This document shows positions 9,530 to 14,499 of a stretch of DNA of 44,050 nt, piece by piece (position 1 is the stretch's first letter; each line of letters opens with the position of its first letter). Position numbers and translations under genes: made by a program. Where the stretch lies: sequence record OM632667.1; one strand, written 5' to 3'. This DNA comes from Escherichia phage BEU33. A model generated the notes under the pieces. It was not told where the DNA came from. It saw only the letters and a program-made list of their open reading frames with translations, and searched no databases.

Positions 9530-9942
9530 TGGGCTACTTTGAGGACTTAACAAAAGCGTTTGATGTGCCGCTGGTAGCCTTCGGAACCACCAACGGCATC
9601 AAGGTAGCGCTTGAAAACATCGACGCGCCGACGTCAACAGATACGCCGTATCTGGCAAGTTACATGTTGCTGGCGGATACCGAGCAGGCTGACTTATTCT
9701 TCACGGAACAACGCGCCGGTGTCTATCAGATAGACATTAACTACGCATCGGTGAAAGGTAGCGCGCCAATCAATAAAATGGCAGACTTACTTAACACGGC
9801 GTTTAAATCAGGTAAGGCATTTTCGCGTAACGACATCTGCGCCGAGGTTCAATCGGTTAGCCTGGGGCCGCTGATTGTAGAAAACGGATGGGCCAAACGA
9901 CCATTGTCAATTAACTTTATTGCATTCACCAAGAGGCTGTGA
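9526..9942 (+). CDS. tail terminator / tail completion protein
   Basis: Position immediately upstream of major tail protein; no motif verified. Confidence 0.35.
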   Translation: MMGYFEDLTKAFDVPLVAFGTTNGIKVALENIDAPTSTDTPYLASYMLLADTEQADLFFTEQRAGVYQIDINYASVKGSAPINKMADLLNTAFKSGKAFSRNDICAEVQSVSLGPLIVENGWAKRPLSINFIAFTKRL

Positions 9943-9944
9943 AT

Positions 9945-11111
9945 ATGGCTACAACTCCTTTTAAGGGCGCGAATACCGCGCAATTCTATGTGGCGGAAAC
10001 TACCCCGGGCGTAACACCGGCTAACCCTGTCTGGTCGCCGTTGCGTAACACTGGCGGTGTTCCTGCCGTAACCCGCGATGCGCTGACTTCCAACGAACTA
10101 GACGGCAGCCGTGAAACTACATCCATCCGAACCGGTAACAAACAGGTTAGCGGGGAGTACGCCATCGAACTTAGCTCTCGTAGCCAGGATGATTTCCTTG
10201 CGGGAGCGATGACTTCTACGTGGCAAGCTGGGGTAGAGATTACTGGCGCCGAAATTACGGTCGCCCCAGCAGGTAAAACATTCACCCGCGCTGCCGGTAG
10301 CTTCATTACTGACAGTGTAGAAGTTGGCGACCTTATTGCGTTCACCGACTTAACCGGCGACAACGCAAAACCGTTTATCGTGACCGCGGTTTCCGCTCTG
10401 GTAGTTACGGGCGCAGGTATTCAGCACACGCTGACAGCAGAGACAGTAACTACTGACGCAAAAACTGGCGACAAGCTGGAAACCGGTAACGCGTGTAAGA
10501 CGTTCTCCATCCTGACGTGGTTCAAGGGCCAGTGTGGTAACCTGGACGCGTACATGCTGACCAAAGGTGTGGAAATCTCTGGCTTTACCGTAGAGCAGGC
10601 GGTTAACGCCATGGTCACCGGCAGCTTCCCGTTCATCGGCCTGAGTCAGGAGATTCTTACCGCGCCGCCGTCTGGCTCTGATTTCTCTCAGGTTACGTTC
10701 ACCGATGAGCCGTTCTCGTCGGTAGATGTGTCGGTGTTCGATGGCTCCACGCCGTTGCGTTGCGATACTCTCACCATCACCAACGACAACGGAGCTTCCG
10801 CGCAGTTCGAACTCGGTAACAGTAGCGTGGCGTTCGTCGAACGTGGACGCGCAGCTAACACATTCTCTATCTCTGGCAAGCTGTACGACATGGCGATGAT
10901 TCAGAAGTTTATCAACGAGCAGCAGGTAGAGATTAACTCTATTCTGGCAGGGGTAAACGGGGCTATGTCTTTCAGTTTGAAACGTGCAGAGCTTACGGCG
11001 GTTACACCTGAGATTGGTGGGCCTGAGTCAATCACTCAGTCCATTGAAGGCCAGGCTACCGGCAATCAGTACCAGTCGTCTATCGTAATTCAACGTATCA
11101 CCTACGCATAA
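9945..11111 (+). CDS. major tail protein
   Basis: Last gene before the chaperone/tape-measure block, followed by a strong terminator; ATG 9945 with RBS AAGAGG. Confidence 0.55.
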   Translation: MATTPFKGANTAQFYVAETTPGVTPANPVWSPLRNTGGVPAVTRDALTSNELDGSRETTSIRTGNKQVSGEYAIELSSRSQDDFLAGAMTSTWQAGVEITGAEITVAPAGKTFTRAAGSFITDSVEVGDLIAFTDLTGDNAKPFIVTAVSALVVTGAGIQHTLTAETVTTDAKTGDKLETGNACKTFSILTWFKGQCGNLDAYMLTKGVEISGFTVEQAVNAMVTGSFPFIGLSQEILTAPPSGSDFSQVTFTDEPFSSVDVSVFDGSTPLRCDTLTITNDNGASAQFELGNSSVAFVERGRAANTFSISGKLYDMAMIQKFINEQQVEINSILAGVNGAMSFSLKRAELTAVTPEIGGPESITQSIEGQATGNQYQSSIVIQRITYA

Positions 11112-11115
11112 AACT

Positions 11116-11140
11116 AAGGCCCCTTTCGGGGCCTTTTTCT
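11116..11140. terminator. bidirectional terminator AAGGCCCC-tttc-GGGGCCTT
   Basis: GC stem flanked by T-tracts on both strands, between convergent genes. Confidence 0.8.
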
Positions 11141-11694
11141 TACAAACCTAATTTTAAAGCAATGTCTATAACGTTCGATTTAACGTCACCCGGTATGATG
11201 TAGGTGTCGTAATCTTTTACACCACTAACATCGTACAGATAGCCACGGCTATCGCCGATGAACGTATAGCCGTCACGATGGAGGCGGACGATTCGCACGT
11301 CATGCCCCGCGGCGACGATAGGGGCAACTTCACTGGCGAATCCACCGTCGGACACTACAAAAACTTCGTCGCCGTCAGGCAAGTTTTCAGCAAGATACTT
11401 ACCGAAATAATCATCGCCGAATACCGGTTTAATGAATTGCTCAGAAATGGCAATCATTAACTGGCGGCGGGACAACCCATTAAGAAAACCCTCGGGTTTT
11501 TCTTTCCGCGCCCGGTCGTCGTAGCCGTCGAGAAATTCGTGGTAAGCATCCTGGCCTAACGCTGCCAAAGCAATATTGAACATTGGATTCTTGAAACTGG
11601 TAGTTCCTTTCGCAAAGCCCATTTCTACCAGCGCCATAGCAAGCGTGTCTTTCCCGCAACCCGCAGGGCCATTAAGAATAATTACCTTAGCCAT
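11140..11694 (-). CDS. P-loop kinase, deoxynucleoside monophosphate kinase-like
   Basis: Walker A GPAGCGKDT and overall pattern resemble the T4 gp1 dNMP kinase family (from memory). Confidence 0.55.
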   Translation of the reverse strand: MAKVIILNGPAGCGKDTLAMALVEMGFAKGTTSFKNPMFNIALAALGQDAYHEFLDGYDDRARKEKPEGFLNGLSRRQLMIAISEQFIKPVFGDDYFGKYLAENLPDGDEVFVVSDGGFASEVAPIVAAGHDVRIVRLHRDGYTFIGDSRGYLYDVSGVKDYDTYIIPGDVKSNVIDIALKLGL

Positions 11695-12182
11695 TATTTA
11701 TCGCTCCCGTGGGGTTTTAAGTGTGTAGAGTTCCCGTTACAGTCGTATTCGGTAACTGCGTGTGCGGTTATGCCGAGGTCACGGAAATGCTTTATTACCG
11801 CTGGAGAGTCGTCGAACGCACACAAGATTCTTTCCAGTCCGAAAGCACGCAACACCTCTTCTTTAATTACGATGTCTTTTCTGTTGTCGTGTTTGCTGCG
11901 CATGATTAGCGTGTCAAACCTAACGTTATTCTCTCGTAACCATTCGCGAGTCTCCTCCTCAGCGTCATCACTTCGCCCGGTAAGGATAATTATAGTAAGT
12001 CCGGAATGCCACAGTACGCTACACAAATGGATATTGTCGTATATCGGAGCGTCATCTTTGCAGGCCATGTTAAATGGCTTCCACGCCCACGTTTCTCCGT
12101 AGTTATCTTTTGGTAACAGGTGTAAGCGATGGGTACCGTCGGCCAATGTCCCGTCTAAATCGAAAATTACAATATCTTTCAT
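11694..12182 (-). CDS. HAD-superfamily phosphatase, polynucleotide 3'-phosphatase (PNK3P)-like
   Basis: N-terminal DLDGT motif and DNRKDIVIKEE resembling the T4 Pnkp phosphatase domain (from memory). Confidence 0.55.
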   Translation of the reverse strand: MKDIVIFDLDGTLADGTHRLHLLPKDNYGETWAWKPFNMACKDDAPIYDNIHLCSVLWHSGLTIIILTGRSDDAEEETREWLRENNVRFDTLIMRSKHDNRKDIVIKEEVLRAFGLERILCAFDDSPAVIKHFRDLGITAHAVTEYDCNGNSTHLKPHGSDK

Positions 12183-13309
12183 CCCAGCATCTCCGGTGAA
12201 ATAGTTAAACGTGCGACCTCGCCATATTCGGCGCTATAAGTAATTACATTTGCACTGCGGCCCGACATCCATCCGCCGCGAGAGGCGTAGGCGTCTTTAG
12301 CCGCTAAGGTGCGGTGTTGCTCAACAATCATGTTACGGCTTTCTACAATCTTCTGGTGGTGCAGATGGCCTACGTGGGCGTAGCTGTAAACACTCTCGCC
12401 GAACGCTTTACGGAACTTGGCAATCATAACCGGTTCGATAGCGTCGAATCGTGCTTTATGCCCGTGATGGAAGAACAGCGTCGTTTTGCCGTGTTGCACC
12501 ATCTTGTAAACATCCGGCGACGTATCGACGAACACGCGCGGCTCATTGTCGTACAGCGTACTGAACATCTCAGCCAACCAAATCATACCCGATTCGTCGT
12601 GATTCCCTTGCACGATAAGCAAGCGAACATTTTTATGCTTAACCAACGCCATATCAACGACACGGCGGACCATACGAATCATGTAACGGACCAGTTTCTG
12701 ATAGCGCGTGTCAGCGTCAAGGACATGACCGCTTGCGGGCGTAACGGCATCAAGACTATCGAAGTGCGCTAAGTCACCAAGAAGATTGATAACCCCAGTA
12801 CCGGCATCCGGTGCTTTCTGGAATGCTGCATCGAACCAACGAGAGAACAGGTCTTCCGCAATCTTCATGTCCCAGTCGTCGCCGCTCTCGTCGGCCCAGG
12901 CCAGCATACCGAGATGGAAATCGGATACAGTGTAAAGATTGAGCAGCTTATCGTCCCGTTTGGCACGAACGGCTTTAACAGGTGCAACGGGCGTAATCTC
13001 CGATTTCATGCCTTCGATCACGGCTTTCATCAATTCAACCTGACGTTCGGCGTCAGTGTCGGTCTTAACCCATTGCAACTTAGTGTTGCCGAACTCATCC
13101 ACCAGTGACGACGTTCCTTTAATCTTATAGCCGTCCGGGACAAGGTGGCTAACATCACGTCCGTGACCTACACCTTTCTTAGCCAGCTTCGCTTTACGGA
13201 TACGAATTACGCGGTCTGAGATGCCGTATTTACGGGCGATGTCTACATTCTTCATTCCGGCGTTCAATTCTTCCTGTAACTGTTCGTCGGTTATTTTCTT
13301 CCGGGCCAT
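12179..13309 (-). CDS. calcineurin-like metallophosphoesterase with N-terminal HTH domain
   Basis: Motifs SDFHLG, GDLAHFD, GNHDE, HHGH, GHLHH in canonical order; about 115 aa of HTH-like N-terminus. Confidence 0.7.
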   Translation of the reverse strand: MARKKITDEQLQEELNAGMKNVDIARKYGISDRVIRIRKAKLAKKGVGHGRDVSHLVPDGYKIKGTSSLVDEFGNTKLQWVKTDTDAERQVELMKAVIEGMKSEITPVAPVKAVRAKRDDKLLNLYTVSDFHLGMLAWADESGDDWDMKIAEDLFSRWFDAAFQKAPDAGTGVINLLGDLAHFDSLDAVTPASGHVLDADTRYQKLVRYMIRMVRRVVDMALVKHKNVRLLIVQGNHDESGMIWLAEMFSTLYDNEPRVFVDTSPDVYKMVQHGKTTLFFHHGHKARFDAIEPVMIAKFRKAFGESVYSYAHVGHLHHQKIVESRNMIVEQHRTLAAKDAYASRGGWMSGRSANVITYSAEYGEVARLTISPEMLG

Positions 13310-13347
13310 GCTTACTTCCTCGTGTTTAGGATTTGTCTTATAGTAGC

Positions 13348-13566
13348 CTACTTCTCTTTCACGTTCGAGTTACAAGCCCAGATTAAAATGAATACCCACG
13401 GCAACAGAACCCACCCGAGAAATAAGTTAGCCATGAATATCGCTAGCTTTGCTTTATGGTTTCGCATATGGGCCACAAAAAACGGGATAAAATAAACGCC
13501 TACAACAATAATTAAAAAGAACATAGCGATACCGGTCATAACATAACTCCTGATTTGAGATAACAT
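13348..13566 (-). CDS. small membrane protein, superinfection-immunity (Imm)-like
   Basis: Two TM segments; motif RNHKAKLAIFMANLFLGW..WVFILIWA resembles the Imm family signature. Confidence 0.55.
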   Translation of the reverse strand: MLSQIRSYVMTGIAMFFLIIVVGVYFIPFFVAHMRNHKAKLAIFMANLFLGWVLLPWVFILIWACNSNVKEK

Positions 13567-13581
13567 CGTTGGTGTAAGTGA

Positions 13582-13610
13582 ATAGTACGCTATTATATTG
13601 GGGAGTGCAA
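13582..13610 (-). promoter_or_regulatory. promoter TTGCAC-N17-TACTAT driving the minus-strand island
   Basis: Hexamers and spacing read on minus strand; -10 ends about 15 nt upstream of the Imm-like start codon. Confidence 0.5.
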
Positions 13611-13717
13611 GTAGTGTGCTAGAATAATTTTGCGCCTAGTGTCGCACACGAAAAGCGGGTGGTTCCCGTCTGGCGCATTTCCTTTAACCAGTAACCTCTT
13701 AACCAAAGGATTAAAGA

Positions 13718-14134
13718 ATGAAACTTTCTGATTTTTATTACGAAGCGGAAGCCGAAAAGGGCGCACGTATGCCGATACCGCTAAAAGACGGTACTGATTC
13801 CGGGGAATGGCTTAATGTTGTTTCTCCTGAGGCGGACGTTGCCGTTAAGGCTATGCGCGCGTTCACCCTTGCATACCGGGCAGTATTAGGGAAATTAAAA
13901 CCGCTTCGTGATAAGTGCGAAGAGATGAAAGATTTCTCTGAATACAACCTGAAGATGGAAGACGCGGCGACGGACCTTAACCGTCAGTTAGCGATTGAAT
14001 TGGTTAACGGGTGGAGCCTTGACGACGAATTCAATAAAGAGAATCTGAACACACTCCTGACGCAATATAAACGACTCGCGGAACTTGTTGTTGTGTTTCA
14101 TAACGAACAACTGCACCAGCTACAGGAAAAGTAG
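13718..14134 (+). CDS. tail assembly chaperone (G-like)
   Basis: Immediately upstream of tape measure gene; followed by a -1 frame ORF. Confidence 0.55.
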   Translation: MKLSDFYYEAEAEKGARMPIPLKDGTDSGEWLNVVSPEADVAVKAMRAFTLAYRAVLGKLKPLRDKCEEMKDFSEYNLKMEDAATDLNRQLAIELVNGWSLDDEFNKENLNTLLTQYKRLAELVVVFHNEQLHQLQEK

Positions 14135-14499
14135 ACGCGTTGCTCCAGTTCGCCCGTTGGAACTTCATAACCCGCCACAAACGGCGGGAATTTGACAGTA
14201 TCGCCGATGGGCATAAAGCCGCGCTAATTGCTATGGGGGTTATGCAAGACGCGCCGGATGCAACGCAGGCCGCTGGGCCGGAATGCCCCCCTGAGCTATT
14301 AACCACATTTGAGAAGTACAGGGAAATTAAATTCACCCGCCGAGTGGACGACGACGGCATCAAGATGTACCCGCGCGAGCAATTACGATGGTCAGATTTA
14401 GTGGCGTACAGCACCGTTTCAGGCCAGAATATAGGGATGTTCGAATCCGACATCATCATGAGCTTAGACGCTATTTTCGAGGGTAGAAACGATGGCTGA
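14125..14499 (+). CDS. tail assembly chaperone -1 frameshift extension (GT-like fusion with 13718-14134)
   Basis: -1 frame open from 14104; candidate slippery heptamer GGAAAAG at 14125-14131 just before the stop at 14132. Confidence 0.45.
   Translation, partial: GKVDALLQFARWNFITRHKRREFDSIADGHKAALIAMGVMQDAPDATQAAGPECPPELLTTFEKYREIKFTRRVDDDGIKMYPREQLRWSDLVAYSTVSGQNIGMFESDIIMSLDAIFEGRNDG

Follow-up and report, generated by a model that had tools for sequence, protein, structure and literature searches.

Escherichia phage BEU33 (sequence record OM632667.1), a Kagunavirus (Guernseyvirinae) related to annotated phages of that genus such as K1G, Golestan and phiEc4, carries a minus-strand island of four genes inside its tail module, and the question is what an immunity protein, a phosphoesterase, a phosphatase and a kinase do together at such a place. 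The window, which means the whole stretch of 44,050 nucleotides (nt) analysed here, was 88-96% identical to these phages. An earlier note on this DNA had read the enzymes as a Pnkp-like end-healing repertoire split into separate proteins, with a module for the nucleotide pool as its fallback. The end-healing repertoire was not supported, because the kinase was predicted to be a deoxynucleoside monophosphate (dNMP) kinase, which phosphorylates the 5'-phosphate of a nucleotide and not 5'-OH ends. It was the fallback that proved right, with the kinase as an ortholog of R1DNK from phage Rao1. The favoured interpretation, held here with moderate confidence, is an accessory operon in which superinfection immunity and a probable DNA nuclease are joined with a pair of HAD phosphatase and kinase for deoxynucleotide recycling.

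Predicted dNMP kinase

The gene at 11140-11694 (minus strand) encodes a predicted dNMP kinase of 184 amino acids (aa), an ortholog of Rao1 gp58 (R1DNK) and a distant relative of T4 gp1. The protein matched phrog_139 "dNMP kinase" (E 7e-45), and Pfam recognised its P-loop only. P-loop matches were also the only result of a single-sequence PDB search, and gp1 could not be separated from Pnkp by a profile search of the PDB (1DEK 0.93, 1LY1 1.3); the choice between them was settled by hhalign and by Foldseek on AlphaFold2 (AF2) models. A profile of 64 kinase sequences was aligned with T4 gp1 end to end over 173 columns (E 2.3e-5), and with T4-type PseT over 25 P-loop columns only. The AF2 model, with a predicted local distance difference test (pLDDT) of 95.3, had 1DEK (T4 dNMP kinase) as its top Foldseek match in the PDB (E 1.1e-5, TMq 0.65). 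Phosphomevalonate and adenylate kinases came next, and T4 Pnkp was not among the top 50 structural matches. The kinase was 50% identical to R1DNK over the full length (E 3e-61), and G14, K15 and D16 were invariant in 64 homologs. The full-length gp1 alignment, 1DEK and R1DNK confirmed the likeness to dNMP kinase that had been noticed in this P-loop protein and placed it firmly in nucleotide salvage. As judged from sequence profiles and the model, it is a gp1/R1DNK-type dNMP kinase and not a 5'-OH polynucleotide kinase.

R1DNK phosphorylates dAMP, dGMP, dCMP and dTMP to deoxynucleoside diphosphates (dNDPs) and is dead as the K15A variant; dAMP, dADP and dATP rise during Rao1 infection, deletion of R1DNK leaves dATP moderately lower at no laboratory fitness cost, and the enzyme triggers the Kongming defence (bioRxiv 10.1101/2024.12.20.629578). 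Conversion of dNMP to dNDP was demonstrated for this ortholog only and is predicted for the kinase of BEU33. Kinase homologs in larger phages adjoin thymidylate synthase, ribonucleotide reductase or nucleoside deoxyribosyltransferase. Since the kinase is orthologous to the trigger R1DNK, the phage is predicted to be sensitive to Kongming (KomABC), which matters in choosing therapeutic Kagunaviruses. The patchy distribution of the kinase may reflect the cost of being visible to this defence.

HAD phosphatase

The gene at 11694-12182 (minus strand) encodes a standalone HAD phosphatase of 162 aa belonging to the Pnkp 3'-phosphatase family. It matched PF25109 (HAD_PNKP, "PNKP phosphatase domain") above the cutoff (E 3.3e-20) and was 31% identical (E 2e-17) to the entire phosphatase domain of T4-type PseT; its closest solved relatives by sequence were Pnkp1 (4xrp) and T4 Pnkp (5uj0, 1ltq). 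In an alignment of eight standalone HAD homologs and PseT, D8, D10, T12, R19, G69, R70, D103 and D125 were invariant, and these align with residues essential in the T4 Pnkp phosphatase. The protein had been described as a standalone HAD like the T4 Pnkp 3'-phosphatase domain, and it is truly in the Pnkp phosphatase family, not in an unrelated one. The MisB-type HAD_2 family scored poorly (E 0.067), and the similarity to T5 Dmp was confined to the DxDGT motif (N-terminal, E 5e-4).

The standalone HAD family has an HRLHLLP motif directly after DxDGT and a C-terminal HLK[PS]HG tail, neither of which is found in T4-type PseT; these could be signs of another substrate pocket or of a site where a partner docks. 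A standalone homolog of 44% identity was located directly after nrdA/nrdB in a Krischvirus which also carries pseT.

HTH-metallophosphoesterase

The gene at 12179-13309 (minus strand) encodes a helix-turn-helix (HTH) metallophosphoesterase (MPE) of 376 aa. It matched phrog_704 "DNA repair exonuclease" (E 3.5e-167), and the MPE models of Pfam stayed below gathering (Metallophos_2 21.6 bits, cutoff 27; Metallophos 18.9, cutoff 21.5). The first homolog search gave matches of at least 97% identity only, and a search of 50%-identity clusters was used for alignment depth; the MPE family comprised 4,624 cluster representatives at E<=1e-3, nearly all with 370-400 aa. D130, H132, G178, D179, N236, H237, H282, G314 and H317 were invariant in 76 diverse homologs, H315 was conserved in 90% or more of the sequences, and none of the five metal-binding motifs (DxH, GD, GNHD/E, H, GHxH) was missing.

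Structure prediction with AF2 (pLDDT 93.4) gave an N-terminal HTH (aa 1-45, nt 13175-13309) whose three helices span aa 8-44, a beta-hairpin with a helix (aa 61-103) and, at aa 119-376 (nt 12182-12955), the MPE core, all encoded on the minus strand. Together with the intact metal-binding motifs, this confirmed what the earlier note had called a calcineurin-like metallophosphoesterase fused to an HTH. Foldseek matched the model to 122 MPE structures of the PDB at E<=1e-3, with Thermotoga Mre11 first (E 3e-9), then PolD DP1 and Rv0805, at TM 0.40-0.48, and many uncharacterised phage proteins in a viral structure library matched it as well. By sequence, a single-sequence PDB search gave noise matches only, and the profile search of the PDB gave weak GerE-type HTH and Mre11 matches, whose E was not significant. 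Going by its modelled fold, the HTH-MPE most likely cuts or degrades DNA. No functional study of this MPE or of this HAD was found in the literature.

Nucleic-acid end healing

End healing needs a 5'-OH kinase and a sealing step, and it fails here because the window has no Pnk kinase domain, no ligase and no tRNA. No part of the window matched the PseT kinase domain. With an RNA ligase and two DNA ligases as tblastn queries, nothing below E 0.9 was obtained in the window, so the absence of a ligase from the island, already claimed before, was borne out, and ARAGORN found no tRNA or tmRNA gene in the whole window. DNA polymerase and helicase-primase are present in the annotation of K1G; no ligase, ribonucleotide reductase or thymidylate synthase was found in that annotation or in the window. 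What survives of the idea is a Pnkp-like HAD which could act on 3'-phosphate ends.

A reduced form of the idea would leave the kinase uninvolved. Here the HAD would remove 3'-phosphates and the MPE 2',3'-cyclic phosphates or damaged ends, on DNA or RNA cut by defence nucleases, and LigA or RtcB of the host would seal them. The MPE-type domain in Pnkp of Clostridium thermocellum is an end-healing phosphatase, which agrees with such a role, as do the intact active site and nucleic-acid-binding HTH of the MPE, the kept active-site residues of the HAD and the fact that its nearest solved relatives, Pnkp1 and T4 Pnkp, are RNA-repair enzymes. We consider this end cleaning unlikely all the same. Besides the missing 5'-OH polynucleotide kinase, ligase and tRNA, the HAD has a dNMP kinase, not a Pnk, as its tightly coupled partner, its standalone homolog beside nrdAB occurs in a phage whose pseT is complete, and Jerseyviruses are without the HAD.

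The main value of the analysis is corrective. In database records the HAD is often labelled "polynucleotide kinase" and the MPE "DNA repair exonuclease", and these labels invite a reading as RNA repair, for which the evidence gives no support.

Distribution among phages

Matches of tblastn were found in 2,042 phage records for the MPE, 1,881 for the HAD and 1,531 for the kinase, and with at least 80% identity, among relatives of the phage, in 291, 56 and 52, respectively. The MPE-HAD-kinase order was also present in Webervirus KOX1 and Rao1 (Drexlerviridae), right ahead of the lysis genes. HAD and kinase were adjacent in Ahp1 (Autographiviridae) and near one another in Tempevirinae, and altogether this adjacency occurred in four phage groups at only 40-59% protein identity. 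The product of Ahp1 gp25, upstream of the HAD-kinase pair, was compared as a candidate MPE homolog and rejected by BLASTP. In Drexlerviridae the gene directly behind the "DNA repair exonuclease" is most commonly a "polynucleotide kinase" or a dNMP kinase, and nucleotide supply was proposed for them (PMC13164509, 2026).

The MPE was also found alone: ahead of the lysis genes in Hanrivervirus vojen and Erwinia phage Snitter (Drexlerviridae), between lysin and small terminase in Dhillonvirus bov22_1 (76% identity), in RcMrWorf (Casjensviridae), in a Vibrio phage, and beside DNA ligase in Campylobacter CPX, there without the HTH. In Jerseyvirus SETP7 the same slot held Imm, the MPE and an unrelated 76-aa ORF (open reading frame), with no HAD and no kinase; the 76-aa ORF was compared as a possible HAD remnant and rejected.

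Among 80 kinase loci in IMG/VR, 22 had the MPE-HAD-kinase arrangement, 10 had HAD and kinase only, and 48 had the kinase alone. The search for MPE loci was seeded with a 12-sequence MPE alignment, since a broader alignment was too diverse, and HAD and/or kinase lay within 5 kb of the MPE in five of 20 lineages (clustered at 70% identity). Clustering of the neighbours at 80 MPE loci gave no recurrent partner beyond HAD and kinase (4/20 lineages each), the other top clusters being alternate-frame artefacts. Because the MPE and the kinase often occur alone, the three enzymes form no obligate pathway. Some 2,000 sequenced phages have the MPE, which is persistent in two families, Drexlerviridae and Guernseyvirinae; the pair of HAD and kinase is an optional addition. 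The pair is dispensable, as Jerseyviruses lack it and the dnk deletion in Rao1 costs no fitness; in this sense the block is common in related phages and dispensable, an outcome that the earlier note had named as speaking against end healing.

Such patterns might also mean that separate cargo genes collected where insertion is tolerated, sharing a promoter but no pathway. The solitary MPE genes in Jerseyvirus, Dhillonvirus, Hanrivervirus, Snitter, Casjensviridae, Vibrio and Campylobacter phages, the many solitary kinases, the restriction of Imm with MPE to Guernseyvirinae and the lack of a recurrent MPE partner would suit a set of unrelated neighbours. Chance neighbours would not be expected to keep the MPE-HAD-kinase order with close spacing in at least two phage families, HAD-kinase adjacency in four groups and overlapping stop and start codons, and we find the explanation improbable.

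Mixed cassettes were seen in IMG/VR, where two MPE lineages had the HAD without the kinase within 5 kb and one had the kinase without the HAD, which shows that each of the three genes is shuffled as a module of its own. Outside Guernseyvirinae the MPE gene was recurrently beside the lysis cassette. In Drexlerviridae it preceded holin-endolysin-spanin, in Dhillonvirus it followed the lysin, and in one Casjensviridae phage it followed holin-endolysin. As the lysis proteins come from different families, this adjacency escaped sequence clustering; late expression or a mere operon boundary could account for it. The MPE was 76% identical to that of Dhillonvirus, 62% to that of Erwinia phage Snitter and only 41-49% to those of most Drexlerviridae, and such uneven identities suggest that the gene moved singly from one siphovirus family to another, and did so fairly recently.

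Gene organization and transcription

The ORF listing gave four consecutive co-oriented minus-strand ORFs (11140-13566), flanked by plus-strand ORFs at 9939-11111 (390 aa) and 13718-14134 (138 aa). By synteny with K1G, ORF 9939-11111 is the tail tube or "putative tail protein" gene, and 13718-14134 with its frameshift partner 14140-14499 is the tail assembly chaperone, after which comes the tape measure gene. The four-gene block between major tail and tail chaperone genes was thus found as it had been described. The stop codon of the MPE gene and the start of the HAD gene overlap as ATGA, and those of the HAD and kinase genes as TAATG. G+C was 0.45-0.51 in the island and 0.52-0.55 in the flanks, with a negative GC skew across the island. 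The region was 100% identical to that of Escherichia phage BEU35, whose record (OM632668) was deposited unannotated. The block is already known, being present and annotated across Kagunavirus in dozens of records.

The first gene of the island (13348-13566, minus strand) encodes an Imm-type superinfection immunity membrane protein, as a 72-aa ORF. It matched PF14373 (E 1.6e-13, 50.8 bits, cutoff 27.9) and phrog_1039 "immunity to superinfection" (E 1.3e-23) and had two hydrophobic stretches, and the Imm-like two-transmembrane protein proposed before was confirmed by these matches. The ATG at 13539 has AGGAG 7 nt upstream and gives a product of 63 aa, the same as annotated gp23 of K1G, so this is probably the start, and the ATG at 13566 is the less likely one. 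Imm accompanied the MPE in Guernseyvirinae only.

A probable sigma-70-type promoter (TTGCAC-N17-TACTAT) lies ahead of the island at 13610-13582 on the minus strand. Its hexamers match the consensus at 7/12 positions only; a consensus scan missed it, and promoter-like sites were no more numerous than in shuffled sequence. An alignment showed that the hexamers and the 17-nt spacing were kept in K1G, in two IMG/VR relatives and in Jerseyvirus SETP7 (TTGCAT-N17-TATTAT), with a diverged spacer. Conservation of hexamers and spacing across genera while the spacer drifts is what is expected of a functional site, and on this ground the promoter that had been claimed here was accepted as probable despite its weak consensus. 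An exact TATAAT within the spacer was considered as the -10 element and rejected, because SETP7 does not keep it.

A hairpin with an 8-bp stem, of which 6 pairs are G-C, and a 4-nt loop was identified at 11116-11135 on both strands, followed by TTTTCTT on the plus strand and by a weaker T-run, AGTTTTAT, on the minus strand. From its sequence it appears to be a real terminator of both converging transcripts, that of the major tail gene (plus) and that of the island (minus). A bidirectional terminator had been claimed at 11116-11140; the hairpin with T-runs on both strands held good, and its end was corrected to 11135.

At 13629-13693 (plus strand), in the divergent intergenic region from the island promoter to the tail chaperone gene, a full-model match to Rfam RF02996 "int-alpA RNA" was observed (36.6 bits, gathering score 35.8). 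It would fold into an outer GCGCC/GGCGC stem around two small hairpins, then a U-rich tail. The region was near-invariant in K1G, SETP7 and the two IMG/VR relatives, and the gathering score was reached by the window only. From its position, this int-alpA-like element may serve to restart or regulate the tail genes downstream, where the terminator and the inverted island have interrupted the tail operon.

Proposed function

In the favoured interpretation, host RNA polymerase would read the island independently of the surrounding late tail genes. Imm, a small membrane protein with two helices and a member of the T4 Imm family, would block superinfection. The HTH-MPE would be a two-metal phosphodiesterase which is tethered to DNA by its N-terminal HTH and degrades it. 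The HAD would strip 3'-phosphates from deoxynucleotides or DNA fragments, making breakdown products and ends usable, and the kinase would turn the 5'-dNMPs from DNA breakdown into dNDPs, from which nucleoside diphosphate kinase (NDK) of the host would produce deoxynucleoside triphosphates (dNTPs) with which the phage could make its DNA. Three parts of this are inferred: a DNase function of the MPE as the source of the dNMPs, the substrate of the HAD and early expression of the operon. The recurring MPE-HAD-kinase order, the ATGA and TAATG overlaps, the Rao1 cassette and the conservation of the promoter across genera argue for this interpretation.

Several points weigh against it. A 3'-phosphatase feeds a 5'-dNMP kinase in no obvious single step. 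The MPE is without HAD or kinase in 15 of the 20 lineages, the kinase stands alone at 48 of the 80 loci, and deletion of the ortholog kinase in Rao1 has no fitness cost. The nuclease call depends on a fold rank in which Mre11 (E 3e-9) is followed by the cyclic-nucleotide phosphodiesterase Rv0805 (4e-8) at TM of about 0.4, and the MPE scores are under the Pfam gathering cutoffs. A specific kinship to T5 A1 was rejected, since only 20 columns around the GNHD motif were aligned, with a probability of 19%. The promoter is weak by consensus.

The island might instead serve counter-defence, in which case the HAD, and perhaps the MPE, would destroy signals such as N6-methyl-dAMP (m6dAMP), dAMP/dIMP or cyclic nucleotides and so offset the degradation of host DNA and a kinase that can be detected. 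Phage dNMP kinases, R1DNK included, trigger Kongming, and T5 Dmp, of the HAD type, counteracts it and co-occurs with such kinases (bioRxiv 10.1101/2024.12.20.629578). Metis and PUA-Cal-HAD sense m6dAMP from host DNA breakdown, and the HAD protein MisB inactivates this signal; Rv0805-type cyclic-nucleotide phosphodiesterases are among the structural neighbours of the MPE, and HAD and kinase are tightly linked. Yet Rao1, with a HAD of 50% identity next to its kinase, does not escape Kongming; only T5 Dmp in trans rescues it. The HAD groups with 3'-phosphatases, resembling T5 Dmp at DxDGT only and HAD_2 poorly, and a near-universal persistent MPE with a DNA-binding HTH is unlike known anti-defence phosphodiesterases. 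The defence models of PADLOC (library of 2023) gave zero matches. On balance counter-defence as the purpose of the island seems quite unlikely.

The operon for immunity, DNA degradation and deoxynucleotide recycling remains the interpretation we favour, and it can be carried further, though only as speculation with small chances of being right. The HTH-MPE would then be the long-sought nuclease which degrades the host chromosome in T1-like and Jersey-like siphoviruses, MPE, HAD and kinase would form a self-contained line from chromosome to dNDP, and the HAD would also strip phosphate from the danger nucleotides that systems such as Metis or Kongming sense. Should the MPE indeed dismantle the host chromosome, a missing piece in what is understood of T1-like and Jersey-like phages would be supplied, and the MPE would link these phages to defences which sense products of DNA breakdown. 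The kinase ortholog is already biochemically characterised, and the counterpart in Drexlerviridae is described with the same functional hypothesis.

Comparison with known systems

T4 gp1 (1DEK) and the kinase share a full-length profile alignment, the best structure match and the GKD variant of the P-loop. Their identity is about 19-25%, and the kinase is without the insertion of about 55 residues in gp1. R1DNK also accepts dAMP and dCMP, whereas gp1 is inactive on dAMP or dCMP according to a note in the T4 record. With PseT/Pnkp of T4, the HAD shares homology over its full length to the Pnkp phosphatase domain, with identical aligned active-site residues; in the island, unlike in PseT/Pnkp, the kinase is a separate protein encoded after the phosphatase, only its P-loop aligns, and there is no ligase.

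Mre11/SbcD and PolD DP1 have the same fold as the MPE and the same five metal-binding motifs, DxHLG and GDLxH among them. Compared with Mre11/SbcD the MPE has no match to the capping domain and carries the HTH and beta-hairpin domain instead, and no Rad50/SbcC partner was annotated in K1G or recurrent near the 20 MPE lineages. In Metis/PUA-Cal-HAD a PUA-like sensor is fused to an MPE, whereas the N-terminus of the island MPE is an HTH and not a PUA.

The pre-early block of T5, with A1, the DNA-binding A2, a two-transmembrane protein and the HAD-type dNMP phosphatase Dmp, is made of the same types of parts as the island. T5 A1, a predicted metallophosphatase, is both required and sufficient for the degradation of host DNA, and its structural neighbours are described as nucleases of double-strand-break repair and proofreading subunits of polymerases, the same classes as the top structural neighbours of the MPE (Mre11, DP1). 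Kinship to T5 A2 (probability 1%), to Dmp (DxDGT only) and to gene 005 was rejected in all cases. T5 discards nucleotides, whereas the kinase of the island would retain them.

The cassette of Rao1 (gp56-gp57-gp58) has the identical MPE-HAD-kinase order, with identities of 45% for the MPE, 50% for the HAD and 50% for the kinase, and the catalytic Lys15 is conserved between gp58 and the kinase. In Rao1 the genes are co-oriented ahead of the lysis genes, without Imm, with short intergenic gaps and, for gp58, a promoter region of its own, whereas in BEU33 they overlap and are inverted within the tail module, with Imm ahead.

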